From assembly GCA_963740355.1 (NCBI GenBank), contig CAVUDW010000002.1:1920001-1984000 (forward strand): 64,000 nucleotides of DNA, read 5' to 3'. A model generated the notes under the pieces. That model did no database searches. It saw only the letters and a list, made by a program, of their open reading frames with translations, and was not told the DNA's origin. Positions 1,615 to 45,737 of this stretch are shown here, in pieces. The position numbers and the translations under genes were made by a program. The DNA comes from an uncultured Gemmatimonadaceae bacterium. GTDB taxonomy: Bacteria; Gemmatimonadota; Gemmatimonadetes; Gemmatimonadales; Gemmatimonadaceae. Positions within the stretch are counted from its first letter, which is position 1. The number at the start of each line of letters is the position of its first letter.

Positions 1615-4410
1615 CTACTGCTGCCGTGGTGCCATCGGCTCTTCGTCGAGCGCCTGACGCAACGTGGTGAGGAGCGAGCTGGCCGTGTAGGGTTTGGGCA
1701 GGAAGTGTCGAACGCCTGCCTCCGCCGCCTTCGCCACCGAGCCGTTGGCGGCCAGCCCGCTGGCGGCGATGATGCGCAGCTGCGGGTTCATCTTCCGCAA
1801 CACCCGAATGGTGGTCACGCCATCCATCACGGGCATCATCATGTCGGTCAGCACACAGGCGACGTCCAGCGTGCGGACGGCATACTGCGCGATCGCGTCG
1901 GCCCCATCGGTGGCCAGCATCACCCGGTAGCCGAAGGCTTCGAGCGTCTGGCGCGTGATCTGTCGCACTGACGTTTCGTCATCGATCACGAGGATCAATT
2001 CGTCCTTGCCCCGTGGCAGTGGTGCCGCGGCTTCGGCGTCGGGCTCATGCTCGGCGACGTTCGCGGCGGGCAGGAAGACGCGAAACGTGGTGCCGTTTCC
2101 AGGCTCACTGTAGACGCGAATGAACCCGCCGTGGCTGCGGATGATCGCCAGCGACGTCGAGAGACCGAGCCCGGTGCCCTGGCCCGGCTCCTTGGTGGTG
2201 AAGAACGGGTCGAAGATGCGATCCATCTGGTCGCGCGGGATGCCGGTGCCGGAGTCCTCGACGGCGATCACGACGTACGTGCCGGGGCGTGTCTCGTCGT
2301 TCACGTGTGCCGACCTCGCCTCGATCACGGTCGACTCGCAGGTGATCGTCAGCCGCCCACCTGTCGGCATGGCGTCGCGCGAATTGACGGCGAGGTTGAG
2401 GAGTACCTGGTGCAGCTGCGTCGGATCACCGAGCAGCGCTGGCAACCGCGCCGGGACACGGGTCGACAGCACGATGCCCCGGGGAAAGGTGTCACCGATC
2501 ATGCGTGAGATGTCCGACACCAGCTGCGAGGGATCGACGCGTGCGCGGCGCCCCTCGACGCCGCGCGCGAATGTCAGCACCTGACGCACCATGTCGGCGC
2601 CGCGCTTGGCGCTCGATTCGATCGCGTCCAGTGCCTCGTTCTTCTCATCCTCGGTCATCGGCATCCGCAGCAGGTCGATGCTGAGGAGGATCGGTGCCAG
2701 CACGTTGTTCAGGTCGTGCGCAATACCGCCCGCAAGGGTGCCGATGCTCTCCATGCGTTGCGAACGCAGGAACTGCTGCTCGAGTCGTCGACGCTCTGTC
2801 ACGTCCTGGAAGGCGCCGCGCAGTCGCAGGATCCGGCCGTCGGCATCACGTTCTGCCTCACCGATGGTGCGGCCCCAGAAGCTGCGCCCACTGGCGGCAC
2901 GGAACGCGAGCTCGATGTCGAACGGTGTGCCATCCTGTTCGCAGCGCTCGAGCAAGTCGGCCACCGCCACACGCCAGGAATCCCGGTGCATGGCGAGCGC
3001 CTCCGGTGTGGCGTGCTCGCTCTCTGCCTGCAGGTCGAACAGTTCGAGAATCTCGTTGCTCCAGACCACGCGTCGTTCGGGCAATTCCAGCACCCAGCCG
3101 CCAAGGCGCGCACTGACCGACGCGATGCGCCGCAGCGCCTCGGTCATGCGCAACGCGCGCTCCGCTTCGCGGCGCACGGTGACGTCACGCGCCACGACGA
3201 GGCGGGCATTCCGTCCGTTGAACGCAATCGGCGTCGACGCGATCTCGACGTCGATCAGCGTGCCGTCACGCAGCAGGTGGCGCCAGTCATTCGTCTCCGT
3301 GTAGGCGTGTGGCGAACGGTGCACGGAATCCAGCACGGCCTGTCGATCAGAACTCGGTCGGATGTCGAGAATCGTCAGCGCCGCAAACTCCTCGCGCGAC
3401 CAACCGTACTTGATCGTCGTCACGTCGTTGACGGCGAGGAAGCGAAGCGTCTCGACGTCGTACACCCAGACGGGCTCCGGATGTGCGTCGAAGAGCAGGC
3501 GATACTCTTCCTCGCGCCGTCGCAGCGCGAGCTCCATCTGGCGACGTTCCGACACGTCCTGTGCCGTGCCGCACACCAGCAGTCCGCGATGTGGCCGGCT
3601 GCTGTCCAAGTGGCCGTGTGCCCGCACATGATGCGTTGTCCCATCAGTCGCCACGATGCGGCATTCGATGTCCAGTGGCGCGAGTCCCGCGACGGCGTCT
3701 TCGAGGCCACGTTGGACGATGGGCCGGTCATCGTCGTGCATGGCCGCGAGGCAATCGACCAGCCTGAGTGGCGCGTCGGTCGGCTCGAAGCCGAACATCC
3801 GATACACCTCGGGTGACGCCACGAGCTCGCCGGTCGACATCGACAACTCGAAGCGTCCGAGTCGCGCGACATGCTGTGCTTCGCCGAGATGCGCGCGCAT
3901 CTTCTCGTACAGCAGGCGCTGTTCACGTGCATCGAGCAGTGCCGCCACGTGTCGCGCCAGCTGCGCGAGTGTCGCGACCTGCTCATCGGCGAGCGCGCGT
4001 GGGCGATGATCCATCACGGCCAGCGTGCCGACGGTGTGCCCGGAGCGCGACCGAATCGGGATACCAGCGTAAGAGCGAATGAACGGCTCTCCGGTCACCG
4101 TCGGATTGCGTTCGAAACGTTCGTCGTCGTGCGTGTCCGGCACCAGCAACGGCTGATCGCCTGTGATGGTGTACGCGCAGATGGAGATCCGCCGGTCAGT
4201 CTCGCGAAACTGCATGCCGACGCTGGCCTTGAACCACTGCCGATTTTCGTCCACGAACGTGACGACGGCCATCGGCGTGTCGCAGAGGCGTGCTGCAAAG
4301 GCCACGATGTCGTCGAACTCGGTTTCCGGCGCCGTGTCGAGAATGTGCAACGCGCGAAGTGCGCGGAGCCTCCCTGCTTCGTCAGGCGAATATTTCTCAG
4401 TCGGAAGCAT
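1615..4410 (-). CDS. Hybrid sensor histidine kinase (GAF-PAS x3-HisKA-HATPase-REC)
   Basis: N-terminal GAF (RLRALRALHILDT), PAS/PAC repeats, H-box GGIAHDLNN, DPFFTTK..GTGLGL, receiver with DD/TDMMMP/KP. Start placed at ATG 4410. Confidence 0.92.
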   Translation of the reverse strand: MLPTEKYSPDEAGRLRALRALHILDTAPETEFDDIVAFAARLCDTPMAVVTFVDENRQWFKASVGMQFRETDRRISICAYTITGDQPLLVPDTHDDERFERNPTVTGEPFIRSYAGIPIRSRSGHTVGTLAVMDHRPRALADEQVATLAQLARHVAALLDAREQRLLYEKMRAHLGEAQHVARLGRFELSMSTGELVASPEVYRMFGFEPTDAPLRLVDCLAAMHDDDRPIVQRGLEDAVAGLAPLDIECRIVATDGTTHHVRAHGHLDSSRPHRGLLVCGTAQDVSERRQMELALRRREEEYRLLFDAHPEPVWVYDVETLRFLAVNDVTTIKYGWSREEFAALTILDIRPSSDRQAVLDSVHRSPHAYTETNDWRHLLRDGTLIDVEIASTPIAFNGRNARLVVARDVTVRREAERALRMTEALRRIASVSARLGGWVLELPERRVVWSNEILELFDLQAESEHATPEALAMHRDSWRVAVADLLERCEQDGTPFDIELAFRAASGRSFWGRTIGEAERDADGRILRLRGAFQDVTERRRLEQQFLRSQRMESIGTLAGGIAHDLNNVLAPILLSIDLLRMPMTEDEKNEALDAIESSAKRGADMVRQVLTFARGVEGRRARVDPSQLVSDISRMIGDTFPRGIVLSTRVPARLPALLGDPTQLHQVLLNLAVNSRDAMPTGGRLTITCESTVIEARSAHVNDETRPGTYVVIAVEDSGTGIPRDQMDRIFDPFFTTKEPGQGTGLGLSTSLAIIRSHGGFIRVYSEPGNGTTFRVFLPAANVAEHEPDAEAAAPLPRGKDELILVIDDETSVRQITRQTLEAFGYRVMLATDGADAIAQYAVRTLDVACVLTDMMMPVMDGVTTIRVLRKMNPQLRIIAASGLAANGSVAKAAEAGVRHFLPKPYTASSLLTTLRQALDEEPMAPRQQ

Positions 4411-40353: not shown

Positions 40354-40540
40354 GGCGCATGATTCGGTTGGTCGGTAGACGTACGATCGCGCACGGGTCT
40401 GACAGCGGAGCGGCCGAGTTGATCAGTCGAATTGCGCTTGAACGATGACGCTCGCAGCAAGTCGCCTCACTATCGTAGATGGGTCGTGCGCACTGTGGGC
40501 GCATGTCGATCTCGCCTCAGCTCCCACGCGGACCTATCCT

Positions 40541-41101
40541 ATGGGCATGTCGCAGCCAAAGCGGACGTACACCACGGACGACCTCGACGGGTTTCCAGAC
40601 GACGGCAACCGCTACGAGATCATCGACGGCGAGCTCTTCGTGACGCCCTCGCCACGGCTCTGGCACCAGGCAGCGGTACTCGAACTGGTCGAGAGGATTC
40701 GCCCTTACGCCAAGGCGCTCGGATTGCGGACGTTCGCGGCTCCGACCGATGTCCGCGTGTCCCAGTTCACTCAGGTGGAGCCTGACCTTTTCGTCTATCC
40801 GCGCGTGGACGACGTGGACGCCACGACGCGGTGGGTCACGATGAACCGGCTACTGTTGGCCGTCGAGGTACTGTCTCGATCGACGGCCCGCGTTGATCGT
40901 GGTCGGAAACGCGAGCTGTACCTCGAACAAGGGGTCGAGGAGTACTGGATCGTCGACGTTGATTCCGGCACGGTTGAAGTCTGGTCGCGACACAACGCGG
41001 AAGCACGCATCGAGTCCGAGCGATTGCACTGGCAGCCCATCCCTGAACGCGACGCATTGGTGCTGGATCTGATCGAGTACTTTCGAGACGTGCGCTCGTA
41101 A
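40541..41101 (+). CDS. Uma2-family (PD-(D/E)xK) endonuclease
   Basis: RYEIIDGEL..PSP..H, VEPDL, LAVEVLS.ST..DR..K..Y..GVEEYWIVD. Confidence 0.92.
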   Translation: MGMSQPKRTYTTDDLDGFPDDGNRYEIIDGELFVTPSPRLWHQAAVLELVERIRPYAKALGLRTFAAPTDVRVSQFTQVEPDLFVYPRVDDVDATTRWVTMNRLLLAVEVLSRSTARVDRGRKRELYLEQGVEEYWIVDVDSGTVEVWSRHNAEARIESERLHWQPIPERDALVLDLIEYFRDVRS

Positions 41102-41163
41102 CTACGTCGCAAGCGCGCGACCGGAGACTAGGTCCCCAGCCGCGCGCCAGCCCATCCGACGAG

Positions 41164-42390
41164 TCAATCCTTGTACGGGTCGAACTCGTTGTCACCCGCC
41201 ATCACGACGATCAGCGGGCGCAGCACGTGCAACACCTCCACCGTCCCCCGCTGCGCGGCCAGGACCTCGGGCAGGCGACGGTACACATGCGGGCTCTCGT
41301 CCACACCGCCACCGCGAAGGATCACACCCTTCTCCCGCACCCAGTCGCGCATCATGTTCGGCGACACCGCGCCTCGGCTCAACTGGCGGCCGGAGCGGAA
41401 GTGACGCTTTCCTGCCGCCGCCGTGCGTGACATCACACGACCGGCGCCATGCACGGTGGAATAGAGCGCCGATTCCTGCAGCGTGACCAACTCGGCTGAC
41501 GCATGATCCGCCGCCAGCCCCTGCACGATGACCGCATCGTCACCCATCGACCCACCAACGAAACCCTTCTGCCCGGGGAAGGCGGGTGTCGCACCCTTCC
41601 GGATGACGACGACCTCCTCGCCGAAGTGCGCTTCCTTCCAGGCGAAGTTGTGGTGGTTGTGGACCAGTTCCAGCTCATCACCACCAAGCAGCGCGACCAC
41701 CTTCCGCGCCACCCACTCGCGGCCGGCATAGGCGTAGGCGCCCGCAAGGTTCATCAGGTGCCAGTAGTCGTGACCGATCGGATCATCGAGGTCGAGCAAC
41801 ACCTCCGTCTCCGGCACCCGCTCACCCCATGCCTTGCCCTGGCCGAGCGCGAGGAAGTTGGAGGCAACCGTATGGCCGAACCCGCGTGATCCGAAGTGCA
41901 CGCCAACCCAGATCGCACCCCGTTCATCCACGAACACGTCCACATAGTGGTTCCCGCTTCCGACCGTCCCGAGTTGCGCCCGCGCCTTGTCGCGCAACGC
42001 CGCCCGGTGCGCGGCCGGCACTGCGTCCCAGGTCGGGTCGTCGAACAGCGCGTGGTCGATTGGTGCGTCATCCGCACGATTCTTCCGACCCATGCCGAAG
42101 CTCACCGTGGCAGAGATTTCATCGGCGAATGTAGTGAGCGCCGAGTGGATCGCTTCGGAATCGCTTCCGAATGAGGCCAGCGTGAGGTTGGTGCGGATCG
42201 CGGCGTTACCGCACGCGATGTCGAAGCCGACGCCCACAACTGAGATCCGATTGTCGTACGCCGCCACACCACCGATCGGCATCACGTAGCCCATGTGACC
42301 GTCGGCCATCAGGGCAGCGTGCTTCGCCTGCGCGCGGATGTGTTCGAACTGAATGAGGGTCTTCTCCTCATGATTTCCAAAGATCGTCAT
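41164..42390 (-). CDS. rtcB: RtcB RNA 3'-phosphate/5'-OH ligase
   Basis: ADGHMGY..PIGG, GFDIACG, QLGTVGSGNHY, HFGSRG, HNHHN, RKGAT, GSMG, HGAGR, DESP..Y. Confidence 0.95.
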   Translation of the reverse strand: MTIFGNHEEKTLIQFEHIRAQAKHAALMADGHMGYVMPIGGVAAYDNRISVVGVGFDIACGNAAIRTNLTLASFGSDSEAIHSALTTFADEISATVSFGMGRKNRADDAPIDHALFDDPTWDAVPAAHRAALRDKARAQLGTVGSGNHYVDVFVDERGAIWVGVHFGSRGFGHTVASNFLALGQGKAWGERVPETEVLLDLDDPIGHDYWHLMNLAGAYAYAGREWVARKVVALLGGDELELVHNHHNFAWKEAHFGEEVVVIRKGATPAFPGQKGFVGGSMGDDAVIVQGLAADHASAELVTLQESALYSTVHGAGRVMSRTAAAGKRHFRSGRQLSRGAVSPNMMRDWVREKGVILRGGGVDESPHVYRRLPEVLAAQRGTVEVLHVLRPLIVVMAGDNEFDPYKD

Positions 42391-42552
42391 CGTACACCTG
42401 CCATCCCTGTGGTAGTGCGCAGCGCTGTCGAGTTGTCGTGATGCGCAATGAAACTGCATGGTGAATCCCGCCGCGCGCCGTGAACCGCGCGCGACGGGTG
42501 CAAGGCACCACTGCCGATTCGTATGGGACCGAATGCGGCAGGACACCATTGC

Positions 42553-42870
42553 TCAATCAGGCTCCCAGGGGCGCTGATTGGCGTTGTCTTCGTCGCGACG
42601 GGCCTTCGCGAATTCGCGGTCGGCAGCGCGTGTTGCAGCCGTCGACTCCACGATCACGTTGACCAATCGGGCTCGCACCCTGATGAGCGAGCCGGTACAG
42701 TCCCGGAACTCGAGCCATTTCGGCTCGACCAGGCGGTTGAAGGTCTTCCGGAGGCAACAAGCGACCTCGCGGGTGACGAACACTCGTCCGAACTCTCCGG
42801 AGACGACGAAGAACTCGTCGTACGGCGGGAATTCGGCGCGCTCGTTCAGCAACTGCAGAATTCTGTTCAT
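42553..42870 (-). CDS. Small hypothetical protein (105 aa) co-oriented upstream of rtcB
   Basis: MNRILQLLNERAEFPPYDEFFVV... has globular-protein composition; the longer 308-aa ORF call runs through structured RNA. Confidence 0.7.
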   Translation of the reverse strand: MNRILQLLNERAEFPPYDEFFVVSGEFGRVFVTREVACCLRKTFNRLVEPKWLEFRDCTGSLIRVRARLVNVIVESTAATRAADREFAKARRDEDNANQRPWEPD

Positions 42871-42983
42871 GATCGGAGTGTCAGCCAGGCGCTGGCCGCC
42901 GAGGTGGCGAGCAGCTAGCGGCTGTGGAAGTGAATGTTCAAGCCCGCACGTCAAGCGACGTGCGAAATGGAAAGACGAACAAG

Positions 42984-43109
42984 ACGGGCTGGCGGGATTT
43001 GCACCCGCATCTTCGGCATCGTGCTCCGCCGGCTCCTGCCTTCTGCAGGCACTGGGAATTCCGGCGGCGATATCGCGCTCTGAGACTGCCATTGAGCTAC
43101 ACATCCCGT
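42984..43109 (-). ncRNA. tRNA-like RNA with an extended hairpin in place of the anticodon arm
   Basis: Minus strand: ACGGGATG / CAGCCCGT acceptor-like stem; TAGCTCAATGG..AGAGC D arm; GCGGG-TGCAAAT-CCCGC T arm; no encoded CCA. Confidence 0.7.
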
Positions 43110-43463
43110 TGGCGCGCGGCCAAAACCCATACGCGCCGAAAGTGGTGATCGACAATGCCTGCAACGTGCCGGCAGCGGCGAGTATCGAACATGAGGTGAA
43201 TCCGCCCCCGGAGCGGGGTGGAGGGACACCGCGGGCGCTCCGAGGGTGAAGCGACGTGACAGATGCACAGCGGCGGCGACGTGTTGTCGAGTCGAGTCCG
43301 TGTCGGAGCACGTACGACAGAGGAAAAACACCGGCAGGGGAGTCGCGTGTCTCTCTGCGCGGGATTTCATGTCGTACGCGTCCGTCGAGGATCGCGACAG
43401 CGCGTTCATCCAACCGGATATCCCCGAGACATGAAGGGCCTGATCCGCGGACCTCTCGCGCAG

Positions 43464-43504
43464 ATACAAAACGCCCCACCTGGCACTCGGCGCAGGCGGG
43501 GCGT
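43464..43504 (-). terminator. Intrinsic terminator (attenuator) between the uORF and the tRNA-like/rtcB region
   Basis: ACGCCCCGCCTG-loop-CAGGTGGGGCGT followed by TTTGTAT. Confidence 0.8.
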
Positions 43505-43535
43505 AGAACGCTCCTTCTTCAGTGCAGAGGGCACA

Positions 43536-43724
43536 CTACGACGTGTGCACCTCGTCCCTGAAGCCTGCGTGGATCCAACCGTTGAGCGCATTCGCGCCCG
43601 AGACGATTAGCTGGTACAACTGCGGTCGGAATTCGCGCTTGCTCATGCACGAATCCAGCACCAGCGCGCGCTGGCAGCTGCCGACGCGCGGGTCCCTCGG
43701 ATTGCGATCAATGAGTGAAGTCAT
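43536..43724 (-). CDS. Putative leader peptide/uORF (62 aa)
   Basis: AGGAG RBS 5 nt before ATG 43724; the stop lies about 30 nt before the terminator. Confidence 0.6.
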   Translation of the reverse strand: MTSLIDRNPRDPRVGSCQRALVLDSCMSKREFRPQLYQLIVSGANALNGWIHAGFRDEVHTS

Positions 43725-43902
43725 GCGAACTCCTGTGAACCGGTGAATCGATGGTGTGGTAAATCGCGTGCGGAAACGCAAAATCGCGCCACCGACGTTC
43801 ACGCAACGAAAAGACTCCGTTGGGTTTGAGTTGGCATTGCGATGCGACGGCACCGGCAAGGATCAACTCGTGAACATCGGGACGCGACTCCCAGAGAGAG
43901 CG

Positions 43903-43931
43903 ATCGTAAGCGGGCCAGGATTCGATGTCAA
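43903..43931 (-). promoter_or_regulatory. Sigma70-type promoter
   Basis: TTGACA (43931-43926), 17-nt spacer, TACGAT (43908-43903). Confidence 0.75.
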
Positions 43932-43968
43932 GGGGTGCGTCAAACACCGACGAACCACACCGCGTGGC

Positions 43969-45507
43969 TCAGCGTGTATCGCGCGCCGTGAATGGCTGCT
44001 TCCGGCTCCCAAGCCGATCGTACACACGTCGCGCCGCGGCGACGGTGCCCGGTGCACGTCGCACGGCCCAGATCCGATCCCGTGCGGCGCGCATCGCCTG
44101 CACGTTGTCCACGATCGGCAGTGGATACGTGACGCCGATCTGCACGCCATACATCTGCTGCAGCATCGGCGGCATGCTGTGCGGCTCGGCGAGGGCAGCG
44201 CGCGGAACCGCGGCCAACTCGGGCACCCACTCGCGGATGAACGTGCCATCGGGATCGTGATCGAGTGACTGCTTCACCGGATTGTAGATGCGGATCGCAT
44301 TGATGCCGGTGACGCCCGACTGCATCTGGCACTGGCTGTAGTGAATGCCCGGCTCGAAGTCGAGGAACTCTCTCGCCAGCAGCACACCGGTGAATCGCCA
44401 GTGCAACCACAGGTGGTAACTCGCGAACGACATCACCATCGCACGCATGCGGAACGGCAGCCATCCCGTGGCGCGCACGGAACGCATGCAGGCATCGATC
44501 AACGGATACCCGGTATGACCTTCGTACCAGACTGACAGTCGTTCCGCGTCTGCCGTCTGTTCATCGCGCAGGCCGACGTACGCATCACACATCGTCCTGA
44601 ACTCGAGCGGGGGCTGATCCTCGAGCTTCTGCATGAAGTGGCAATGCCAGCGCAGACGGGAGCGGAAGCTCGAAATGCTCGCGCGCCATCGCGCATCGAC
44701 GTCGTCACCCGAGGCAGGACCATTGGCGAGCTGCTGCAGTCTCGCGCGCGAAGCATGTTCGCAGGTGCGGATGCTGATCGCACCGGTGCTCAGCCAGGCG
44801 CTGAGGCGGCTGCACGCGTCGGGCGCTGTGACGGGGCTCGACATCTCCCGGCGATAATCGACACCACGTTCACGAAGGAAGCTGCGTAGTGTCTCTCTTG
44901 CCACCTGTTCACCACCGTGCTGGAGGCGAGGGCGCGAATGGCGGTGCGTCGCCGACAGCGCGAGTGATGCCGCGTCGTCGCGTTCGGCCAGCGCAACGCT
45001 CGAGAGTCGCCGAGGTGCTGGCAGCGGCGCCGCTGCCATGCGGGCTTCCCAGGCGGTGGCCCATCCGTCACGCGACGGGAGGCGCCTCACCACACCGGTC
45101 TGCGGCAATTCGAGCAACTCGTGGCCATGTGCGCGGCACCATTGGCGGACGGTGCGGTCACGCTGGTAGGCGAGCCATCCCGTCGTCTCCTCGTGCGCCC
45201 AGATCGAGGTGATGCGCGACGGCTCTGCAGACTGCGCGAGCTCGCCCTGGATCGCTGCCAACACCGACGTCACCTCGCCTGTTCGCCGGTGCAACACGAC
45301 ACCACGCTCGGCGAGCGACTCGGTTAGGTCGTCGAGGCATTCGAGCACCAGACCCAGATGCCTCGGATCGTGGTCTGGGGCCTCCATCAGCGACGGCTCG
45401 TGGATGTAGAGGCACAGCACGGGCCCGCGCGCGGCCGCCGCCGTCAGTGCAGCATGGTCGCGGATTCGGAGGTCGCGCTTGAACCAGACGAGATGGATGT
45501 CACGCAT
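43969..45507 (-). CDS. Cryptochrome/photolyase-family FAD-binding protein
   Basis: VWFKRDLRIRDH, SRLSAWL..G, TGYPLIDACMR, GWLPFRMR, DFEPGIH, IYNPVKQ..DHDPDG. Confidence 0.92.
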   Translation of the reverse strand: MRDIHLVWFKRDLRIRDHAALTAAAARGPVLCLYIHEPSLMEAPDHDPRHLGLVLECLDDLTESLAERGVVLHRRTGEVTSVLAAIQGELAQSAEPSRITSIWAHEETTGWLAYQRDRTVRQWCRAHGHELLELPQTGVVRRLPSRDGWATAWEARMAAAPLPAPRRLSSVALAERDDAASLALSATHRHSRPRLQHGGEQVARETLRSFLRERGVDYRREMSSPVTAPDACSRLSAWLSTGAISIRTCEHASRARLQQLANGPASGDDVDARWRASISSFRSRLRWHCHFMQKLEDQPPLEFRTMCDAYVGLRDEQTADAERLSVWYEGHTGYPLIDACMRSVRATGWLPFRMRAMVMSFASYHLWLHWRFTGVLLAREFLDFEPGIHYSQCQMQSGVTGINAIRIYNPVKQSLDHDPDGTFIREWVPELAAVPRAALAEPHSMPPMLQQMYGVQIGVTYPLPIVDNVQAMRAARDRIWAVRRAPGTVAAARRVYDRLGSRKQPFTARDTR

Positions 45508-45737
45508 TCGGAAGCGAACGTTCCAGGCGGGCAGAATGATCCGTCGCACGTCGGGATTCCATGGCGGGAGGGCACCGCTGCGTCAGCAGCATCATGGACG
45601 CGCGTGACTGCTCACCCATTCGGGTGACGCGGGAGCGTCAGTGTGAGGCTACACTCCGACCAGACTGATGCGCGCCCAGCGATGCGCACGGACAACCCTG
45701 GCGCAGCAGGGGGTTCGTCGTATGGTGCGAGTGCTGT

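Follow-up and report, generated by a model that had tools for sequence, protein, structure and literature searches.

We analysed 64,000 nucleotides of DNA from an uncultured Gemmatimonadaceae bacterium (contig CAVUDW010000002.1, positions 1,920,001 to 1,984,000), hereafter called the window, in whose positions the coordinates of this locus are given. On the minus strand of the window, the gene of the RNA ligase RtcB is preceded by a promoter, a structured leader RNA, a small open reading frame and a terminator-like hairpin, and we lean towards the view that these elements form one 5' cassette, a cis-acting transcription attenuator shared by an RNA-damage and translation-stress regulon in Gemmatimonadota. 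This view builds on which elements are present, in what order and how well conserved, on the structures of the RNAs and on a regulon-like distribution of the downstream genes, here called the cargo. The leader RNA, and not the upstream open reading frame, is the most conserved and most widespread part.

A conserved 5' cassette precedes rtcB

All elements of the cassette lie on the minus strand. A sigma70-type promoter, TTGACA-N17-TACGAT (43931-43903), matches the consensus at 10 of 12 positions and is followed by a leader RNA with the fold of a three-way junction (43900-43749), which is matched by its covariance model at 91.8 bits. The small frame of 62 codons (43724-43536) has AGGAG 7 nucleotides before its ATG and a TAG stop at 43538-43536. 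Next come a Shine-Dalgarno-like motif, GAAGGAGCG (about 43518-43510), and a hairpin resembling an intrinsic terminator (ACGCCCCGCC...GGUGGGGCGU) with its U-tract (43504-43458, the hairpin itself reaching to 43464), recognised by its fold and by compensatory changes.

The original prediction, made from the letters of this DNA, had proposed such an arrangement as an RNA-repair system, and every part that it listed was recovered. The promoter proposed at 43931-43903 is present and common to 7 syntenic loci, the stem-closed RNA of about 110 nucleotides could be sharpened to 43900-43749, with a 14-base-pair closing helix and two inner hairpins, the upstream frame with its AGGAG ribosome binding site is present and holds 62 codons, and the terminator placed at 43504-43464 folds at -35.2 kcal/mol and is followed by a U-tract. 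Further downstream, the stretch of about 350 hairpin-rich nucleotides after the terminator contains conserved blocks (43385-43200), the unknown open reading frame of 105 amino acids is a real conserved gene (42870-42553), and rtcB is confirmed by Pfam (PF01139, E 5.6e-62), its start being most likely the ATG at 42390 and not that of the 461-amino-acid frame from 42549.

The promoter sequence is the sole sigma70-like site in 41000-44200, where 0.6 would be expected by chance. Such a match alone is weak, and its support comes from the relatives, because the -35 hexamer is invariant and the -10 element reads TAnnnT at the same distance in 7 of 7 syntenic loci; the same -35 and -10 were seen by eye among the rows listed of a 107-row leader alignment. 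The same scan (41000-44200) gave no promoter-like site between 43900 and rtcB, where an independent proximal promoter of rtcB would have spoken against the predicted operon.

We also looked for the same arrangement in related genomes, the host genome of the window being 5.4 Mb long and 94.5% complete. The stretch from promoter to rtcB could be aligned in 5 and then in 7 loci from different species with the whole order kept, and the invariant blocks in the 7 loci were the -35 hexamer, about 30 nucleotides after the -10, the 3' strand of the leader, the end of the small frame, the terminator and the CACGCGACUCCCC block. The order is also kept in 3 more genomes of the genus (G004, G019 and G011) and in G005 (locus L168). 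By the leader model, 9 of 20 genomes of the genus contain the leader, in 1-2 copies each. Downstream of the cassette, a tRNA-like RNA is present in 4 of the 7 aligned loci and absent in G016, L010 and L011, while G004, G019 and G011 carry the leader, frame, terminator, mid block, tRNA-like RNA and RtcB and lack p105, the protein of 105 amino acids, which is absent from G005 too. As they are missing in different relatives, neither the tRNA-like RNA nor p105 is obligatory, while every member of this same-genus subgroup has the 5' cassette and RtcB. Thus synteny and covariation, by which the original prediction proposed to be judged, both spoke for it: the order of elements is conserved in Gemmatimonadaceae relatives, and supporting covariation was seen for the leader, for the terminator and for the tRNA-like RNA.

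The leader RNA is a covarying three-way junction

The leader is about 125 nucleotides long. The 5' strand of its closing helix P1, within 43892-43875, pairs with a 3' strand ending at about 43783, two inner hairpins (P2 and P3) lie between them, and a U-rich tail follows at about 43782-43771. RNAalifold folded P1 as a 14-base-pair closing helix interrupted by a small internal loop or bulge in an alignment of 107 distinct leader sequences among the matches listed. The search pattern fixes the 5' strand of P1 in these sequences; changes in the 3' strand all keep pairing (GU to GC in 14 and in 32 sequences, UG to UA in 25). In a second alignment, of 95 sequences fitted to the covariance model, P1 is 99.4% paired and every one-sided change retains pairing.

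Results for the complete leader in this 95-sequence alignment showed pairing in 86.9% of cells against 33-42% in slid controls, 315 double-change cells against 49-81, and a covariation score of 0.285 against 0.044-0.059, while none of 500 shuffles reached these values. Compensatory changes were found at 19 of the 19 pairs of P2 and P3. An alignment fitted to a model favours the structure of that model; the folds of single sequences are independent of it, and the finding that the leader interior, folded alone, makes exactly two hairpins in 99 of 106 sequences is therefore free of that bias. On a plain MAFFT alignment, RNAalifold recovered P1 alone for the leader, P2 and P3 requiring the per-sequence folds and the covariance-model alignment. 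The covariance model finds one copy per locus, at 37-131 bits, with reverse-strand echoes of at most 33 bits.

In the more divergent genome copies of G344 and G347, an A to C change in the 5' strand is matched, by eye, by a U to G change in the 3' strand, and in G300 and G136 P1 appears, again by eye, as a near-perfect helix of 18-19 base pairs followed by seven U. At least six U stand within 12 nucleotides after P1 in 66 of 72 distinct tails. The leader matched no Rfam family, either at gathering score in the window or at E≤10 over 42300-44000.

The small frame keeps its stop in front of a conserved terminator

Judged by its sequence, a GC-rich hairpin running directly into a U-tract, the element behind the small frame is a putative conserved intrinsic terminator. 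All 52 aligned sequences have its 11-base-pair stem, CGCCCCRCCUG.../...CAGGYGGGGCG, and its U-tract, and 4 pairs of the stem show compensatory changes. The copy of the window (-35.2 kcal/mol) has a z of -2.39. A simple terminator scan missed it because its loop is longer than the limit of the scan, and RNAalifold on a plain MAFFT alignment of the 3' module recovered the terminator alone.

In 67 of 76 loci a frame stops 28-43 nucleotides ahead of the terminator, and no earlier stop interrupts it as far back as the leader. Counted from 60 nucleotides past the leader to the stop (median 219 nucleotides), 68 of 75 loci keep this frame open; the other two forward frames are open in 11 and 28 of the 75, the antisense frames in 44, 23 and 11. 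Its length varies between 34 and 187 codons across loci, and its stop position is always occupied by TAG, TAA or TGA in the 52 aligned sequences and never by a sense codon in 73 distinct frames (TAG in 58, TGA in 8, TAA in 7), with Pro as the last sense codon in 47 of the 73. In the window the stop lies at the loop/stem edge of a hairpin (43550-43531); in relatives this hairpin is small and variable in sequence, with the stop in its loop or at the stem edge. A frame kept open with a stop kept in place fits a regulatory frame whose peptide is largely free, and the comparison of frames suggests a peptide evolving almost neutrally. We consider the small frame probably translated.

The composition of the small frames is typical of GC-rich sequence (Arg 13.3%, Gly 13.2%). 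Enrichment in codons for the tRNAs of the operons (Asp, His and Arg) was considered and, for Asp and His, rejected, as these make up 4.7% and 2.1% against 6.9% and 4.1% in RtcB. Rare Arg codons (289/719 in the small frames, 30/508 in RtcB) are uninformative, Arg enrichment being expected for GC-rich sequence.

The leader stands before RNA-repair and stress genes

To see how far the leader extends, we scanned soil metagenome contigs with its invariant 22-mer, which occurs exactly in at least 120 contigs. Among 401 Gemmatimonadota genomes sampled, 24 matched the 22-mer pattern with at most 2 mismatches, compared with 1 for a reversed-pattern control. Five of the 27 genome places (L134, L136, L140, L142 and L145, reading GGGAC(G/C)CGCGTCCCGATGTTCA) lie inside a conserved coding frame (...KDGTRVPMFI...) without a promoter and were dropped as chance look-alikes, which leaves 22 real leader places in 19 of the 401 genomes.

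The downstream genes were then surveyed with Pfam in 43 metagenome loci having at least 1.2 kb downstream, among the matches listed, over at most 2.2 kb per locus. RtcB was found in 6 of them, TROVE/Ro60 in 12 and Hen1 with a Pnkp-type kinase in 1 (L047), the remaining loci having no recognisable gene within those available 2.2 kb or less. The same survey of 20 genome loci gave RtcB in 7 and Ro60 in 5, in 3 of which RtcB follows. In two further genome loci a divergent leader stands before genes of another kind, namely an S30AE hibernation factor and a CBS protein in L160 (G345:C179), and a DksA-type zinc finger, a baeRF family 10 protein and a ferritin/rubrerythrin in L171 (G299:C246); the other genome loci had nothing recognisable downstream in Pfam. 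In L047 (907-3136), the leader motif lies about 120 nucleotides upstream of Hen1 (Hen1_L and methyltransferase), which is followed by the Pnkp-type kinase domain. The Ro60 protein of the sister loci, Rsr, consists of TROVE and Ro60 vWA domains, and Rsr, the tRNA-shaped RNAs and RtcB share one strand. In one Rsr locus (L175, 3-1238, minus strand, genome G300), the RtcB downstream of Rsr carries an intein-splicing domain.

A leader that stands before such varied repair and stress genes has the distribution of a regulon signal and not that of a gene-specific leader. Nor is the system set apart from the biology of Ro60 and Y RNAs, since in relatives the cassette precedes Rsr, Rsr with RtcB, Hen1-Pnkp and tRNA genes. 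The locus in the window belongs to this broader family as a derivative without Rsr.

A tRNA-derived RNA and tRNA genes among the cargo

Behind the terminator of the window lies a conserved hairpin block, the mid block (43385-43200, minus strand), with invariant blocks in 7 loci, then a conserved 10-base-pair hairpin (43137-43110, minus strand) and, directly downstream of it, a tRNA-derived RNA (43109-42984, minus strand; 43137-42978 with the hairpin). The original prediction had called the latter a tRNA-like RNA. It is real, as conservation and covariation support it, but it is no tRNA by ARAGORN, which found 0 tRNA genes in the window, or by Rfam, where the copy of the window had no match at gathering score nor at E≤10 (42300-44000). 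Folded alone, this copy is unremarkable (z -0.22), and we take the element as real because of its conservation and covariation. BLAST gave 28 matches, most of them full-length, in loci of the RtcB and Rsr types, and 22 sequences are 91.7% paired against 37-47% in slid controls, with 73 compensatory cells against 7-26 and none of 500 shuffles reaching these values.

The order of its parts is that of a tRNA, with the acceptor 5' strand, a D-arm, a long arm, a T-arm and the acceptor 3' strand. The acceptor-like stem is 75.8% paired in the 22 sequences, the D-arm GCUC/GAGC shows CG to UA and UA to GC exchanges, a 5-base-pair stem stands in the position of the anticodon stem, and a three-segment arm of about 13 base pairs (about 55 nucleotides) replaces the anticodon loop. 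Some copies have a canonical T-loop. Those of L048 reach 38.8 and 47.2 bits with the Rfam tRNA model (RF00005, cut-off 29), with about 50-64 nucleotides inserted in the anticodon arm, and the copy of the window is more degenerate than these. Between the two tRNA-like RNAs of L048 we also noticed a near-perfect palindromic hairpin of about 85 nucleotides (3088-3178); its miRNA-model matches fall on both strands and are spurious.

We also compared this RNA with the tRNA-like Y RNA YrlA (RF02553), which had no match at E≤10 in 42300-44000. In relatives, YrlA scores of 27.6 and 37.6 bits stayed far from the cut-off of 69, and the YrlA match at L172 overlaps the 3' end of a tRNA-His gene, which is the false-positive type (tandem tRNA arms) against which the authors of YrlA warn (PMC4201824). 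We take the RNA as a class of tRNA-derived RNA tied to Rsr and RtcB, akin in idea to YrlA/Yrn1 and outside the curated family. Most likely it is a relic or relative of the tRNA- or Y-RNA-like modules beside Rsr and RtcB in the sister operons, and it could serve as a scaffold, decoy or substrate.

Real tRNA genes, absent from the window, lie on the operon strand after the terminator in 28 sister loci according to ARAGORN, with 18 Arg(ACG), 16 His(GTG), 10 Asp(GTC), 4 Pro(CGG) and 1 Arg(TCG). Examples between the terminator and Rsr or RtcB are L172 5415-5730 (minus strand), L022 1095-1250 (minus strand) and L048 3401-3476. This suggests that replacement of tRNAs is coupled to the repair of RNA or tRNA. 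In E. coli, colicins E5 and D cleave the tRNAs for His and Asp (with Tyr and Asn) and for Arg.

The mid block has BLAST matches in metagenome loci of the window's own type and in G004, G019 and G011. Its 11-mer ACGCGACUCCC (43348-43338), contained in a block that is invariant in 7 own-type loci, is the exact complement of GGGAGUCGCGU at the 5' end of the leader (43892-43882). In several tRNA-like copies, the string GCGACUCCC...GCCGG forms the 3' half of the T-loop and T-stem and the acceptor strand. Since the mid block shares this T-arm-like string, it may be a relic of a tRNA-like RNA, and to judge from the letters the 5' end of the leader may pair with T-arm 3' halves.

p105 is a recurrent partner of RtcB and Rsr

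The gene of p105 (42870-42553, minus strand) has homologs in other loci. Within the genus, 4 of 19 other genomes carry a homolog of 49-58% identity, and none was found in 21 further genomes of the family and order. Homologs of 25-64% identity occur in 21 other loci, also between Rsr and RtcB; p105 repeatedly accompanies these two proteins in the operons. A profile search gave 350 representatives at E≤1e-3 and 236 at E≤1e-10 among 1.84 billion, by which the 6 clusters of a word-based protein search are an underestimate; a peptide-pattern scan of metagenomes found no p105.

No Pfam or NCBIfam family covers p105. Its AlphaFold2 model (predicted local distance difference test, pLDDT, 77.7) has a five-stranded small beta-barrel, a long C-terminal helix and an acidic tail. 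Foldseek against PDB had no match at E≤1e-3, and structure comparison with VIA-align had a best Z of 4.9 and repeated Hfq/LSm/SH3-like barrels at Z 2.4-3.3, values too weak to assign a fold family. Binding of RNA by p105 would be no more than a reasonable guess.

RtcB and known regulators in the host genome

The rtcB gene (42390-41164, minus strand) encodes an RNA 3'-phosphate/2',3'-cyclic-phosphate ligase of 408 amino acids, which matches PF01139 over profile positions 7-424 of 426 (210.8 bits, cut-off 27). It aligns to the Pyrococcus horikoshii enzyme (1uc2) with E 4.5e-27 and with the conserved His/Cys motifs in register (DGH.GY, GFDI.CG, GSGNH, H.GSRG.GH and HGAGR), whose residues we take to be the metal-binding and guanylylation sites. 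This is the one RtcB gene of the host genome. TROVE/Ro60 had 0 matches in the host genome and was found in 0 of 5 same-genus carriers, these six genomes being 88-100% complete, and RtcR (PF06956) had 0 matches in the host genome while the E. coli control was positive. That neither rtcR nor TROVE is seen in the window, as noted originally, thus extends to the whole genome (RtcA was not part of this search), and since neither RtcR nor Rsr was found there, the genome is without the known regulators.

Between p105 and rtcB, a GC-rich hairpin without a U-tract can be read from the sequence (42497-42467, minus strand), and a comparable one stands at the same place in G001, G012, G016 and G017. The neighbours of the operon are a DNA photolyase gene (43969-45549, minus strand, by Pfam), directly upstream of the promoter on the same strand, and a gene for a putative endonuclease of the Uma2 family (40445-41101, plus strand), convergent with rtcB.

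Attenuation and alternative explanations

We infer a single transcript from 43900 through rtcB, together with an attenuation logic and an inducing signal. All operons of the family would start with the same cassette, that is, the sigma70-type promoter, the leader and mostly the small frame with the terminator. In the resting state, polymerase would halt at the U-tract of the leader or at the second terminator. A disturbance of translation or of RNA integrity would shift the position of the ribosome on the small frame and/or change the folding or occupancy of the leader RNA, the terminator would then fail, and polymerase would enter the cargo, in the window the tRNA-derived structured RNA, p105 and the RtcB ligase. 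Attenuation in which the small frame takes part, proposed originally as sensed by the ribosome, is still the best reading in view of an open frame with a stop fixed relative to the terminator; against a conventional coding gene, the frame is mostly without a Shine-Dalgarno sequence and its peptide is near-neutral.

Several observations weigh against such an attenuator. Thirteen independent frame pairs show no coding-type pattern, with 128, 108 and 136 differences at the three codon positions and 68 synonymous versus 214 non-synonymous codons, and one of the antisense frames, too, is free of stops in 44 of 75 loci. A Shine-Dalgarno-like motif precedes the ATG in 17 of 70 loci, compared with 16% at control positions. 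The small frames have no regulatory-codon signal and no run of such codons, and no conserved antiterminator helix was definable, a GGAGCGU/ACGCCCC alternative seen by eye being weak. In L047 the terminator has no match and a small frame would find no space, and for the terminator motif L160 and L171 contain nothing beyond weak matches, so that neither the small frame nor the second terminator is needed for the leader to act. The U-tract of the leader could be no more than the end of a small RNA that stands by itself, and the 5' strand is invariant beyond the needs of pairing, which also fits a DNA operator or a protein-binding site. As the leader alone must be enough in some operons, we also weigh its reading as a riboswitch-like or protein-binding element, as a free small RNA or as a DNA operator.

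The leader could be a trans-acting small RNA that ends at the U-tract, Y-RNA-like or protein-binding, with the frame and terminator belonging to a separate gene and the cargo starting in the mid block. P1 followed by a U-rich tract indeed resembles a terminator or the 3' end of a small RNA (66 of 72 tails with at least 6 U), and the length and shape of the leader fit Y RNAs, which are 80-130 nucleotides long with a long stem from both ends and an internal loop with stem-loops (PMC4201824). Moreover, 12 metagenome and 5 genome loci have the leader in front of rsr, with both on one strand, and the 5' strand of the leader carries GUCCCGAUG, which resembles the Ro motif GGUCCGA / GNCGAAN0-1G. This resemblance is inexact, however, the Rfam Y_RNA and YrlA models do not match the leader, and the leader is equally conserved where TROVE was not found (the host and 5 relatives, 88-100% complete). 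As the region from 43900 to rtcB has no promoter-like site for a separate cargo start and the spacing of leader, frame and terminator is fixed across cargo types, which argues for a single unit, we consider a free-standing small RNA unlikely. Fewer of our expectations rest on a DNA operator, in which the invariant sequence after the -10 would mainly bind a repressor of a translational-stress regulon, with the RNA fold of lesser importance. In favour of it, the 22-mer overlaps the site where transcription should begin, does not vary among 7 loci found through their protein and not through the pattern, and spreads regulon-like over unrelated cargo; in Anabaena, 9-nucleotide repeats cover the -10 and the start for a tRNA array, rtcB and dpsA (PMC8421152). 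What an operator leaves unexplained is a 3' strand about 100 nucleotides away that preserves pairing, the covarying P2 and P3 and the U-tract; the A to C changes of G344 and G347, matched by eye by U to G across P1, speak against it too, and no repressor gene is consistently linked, which makes this explanation very doubtful.

Alternatively, the three-way junction might be a riboswitch-like sensor of a small molecule or RNA fragment that damage to RNA leaves behind (2',3'-cyclic-phosphate species or tRNA halves, for instance), and the small frame would have no part in sensing. Its invariant junction nucleotides and variable covarying stems look like an aptamer, the stability of a P1 abutting the U-tract could decide termination in a ligand-dependent way, and L047 has the leader without the small frame. 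A direct RNA sensor would be the RtcR-free equivalent of the sensing in Salmonella, where RtcR is proposed to sense tRNA halves ending in cyclic phosphate (PMC7790460, PMC10159003), and GGGAGUCGC of the leader is complementary to GCGACUCCC, the T-arm 3' half of several tRNA-like RNAs of the operons. But no known riboswitch class in Rfam matches, and the open frame, fixed stop and second terminator of most loci would be left unexplained; we regard this too as improbable. Returning to the attenuator, which we prefer to these three explanations, it is conceivable, though tentative, that the leader directly senses RNA damage or failure of translation, through fragments of damaged tRNAs or through the progress of the ribosome, and thereby unifies an RNA-repair regulon in a phylum free of RtcR. 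If so, the regulon would comprise RtcB, Ro60, Hen1-Pnkp, the hibernation factor and baeRF, and its operons would deliver replacement tRNAs (Arg-ACG, His-GTG, Asp-GTC) and anticodon-less tRNA decoys beside the ligase.

Novelty and comparison with known systems

Sensing of RNA damage to induce RtcB, Ro60 and Pnkp/Hen1 is understood mainly for the enterobacterial RtcR/sigma54 circuit. In a different phylum, a single cassette precedes three repair systems and ribosome-related stress genes, and so points to an undescribed way to switch on RNA repair, whose inducing signal is directly testable with an RNA of about 125 nucleotides and a small frame. The tRNA-derived RNA with its extended anticodon arm, the p105 family (350 representatives) and the tRNA-Arg, -His and -Asp genes of the operons are new objects of study. 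A full-text literature search, which did not cover the supplementary YrlA species tables of PMC4201824, found no upstream RNA motif connected with Gemmatimonadota, RtcB, Rsr or Hen1. The leader, the way in which it is joined to a neutral open frame whose stop is fixed and to a terminator of conserved sequence, its use before RtcB, Ro60, Hen1-Pnkp and ribosome-stress genes, the tRNA-like RNA with the extended anticodon arm and p105 all appear to be undescribed, while operons of Ro60, Y RNA and RtcB and attenuation by leader peptides are of kinds already known.

Like the rsr-yrlBA-rtcBA operons of Salmonella and Mycobacterium, the sister loci join Rsr, tRNA-shaped RNAs and RtcB, and the RNA has D- and T-arms. 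Unlike in those operons, no RtcR was found in the host genome, control of the sigma54 type is not evident, the genome of the window has no Rsr, and a new 5' cassette, real tRNA genes and p105 are present. The RNA described here also has the normal order of a tRNA with open acceptor ends, whereas the order of YrlA is permuted (T-arm, acceptor-like stem-loop, D-arm) and its termini form the Ro-binding stem (PMC4201824).

With leader-peptide attenuators (trp/his and tnaC), the cassette shares a small frame that ends just before a terminator with a fixed stop position, and with slowly released leader peptides a last codon that here is often Pro (47 of 73). Attenuators of the tnaC type stall the ribosome at the stop codon, and peptides ending in Pro are released slowly. 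In contrast to trp, his and tnaC, the frame is long and near-neutral, and a large structured RNA stands ahead of it. Riboswitches and T-box leaders likewise place a conserved multi-stem leader beside a terminator-like element before functionally related genes, but the leader described here belongs to no Rfam family, and its closing helix itself carries the U-tract.

The cargo matches in kind the translational-stress regulon of Anabaena PCC 7120, a functional analogue: in both, a single upstream signal stands before tRNA genes, rtcB and a ferritin-like protein, and hen1-pnkP takes part. In Anabaena, the tRNA array, rtcB and dpsA are co-induced and hen1-pnkP comes late, and the signal is a pair of 9-nucleotide direct repeats in the DNA over the -10 and the start site (PMC8421152). 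Unlike in Anabaena, the signal in Gemmatimonadota would be a transcribed three-way-junction RNA, mostly accompanied by a small frame and a terminator.

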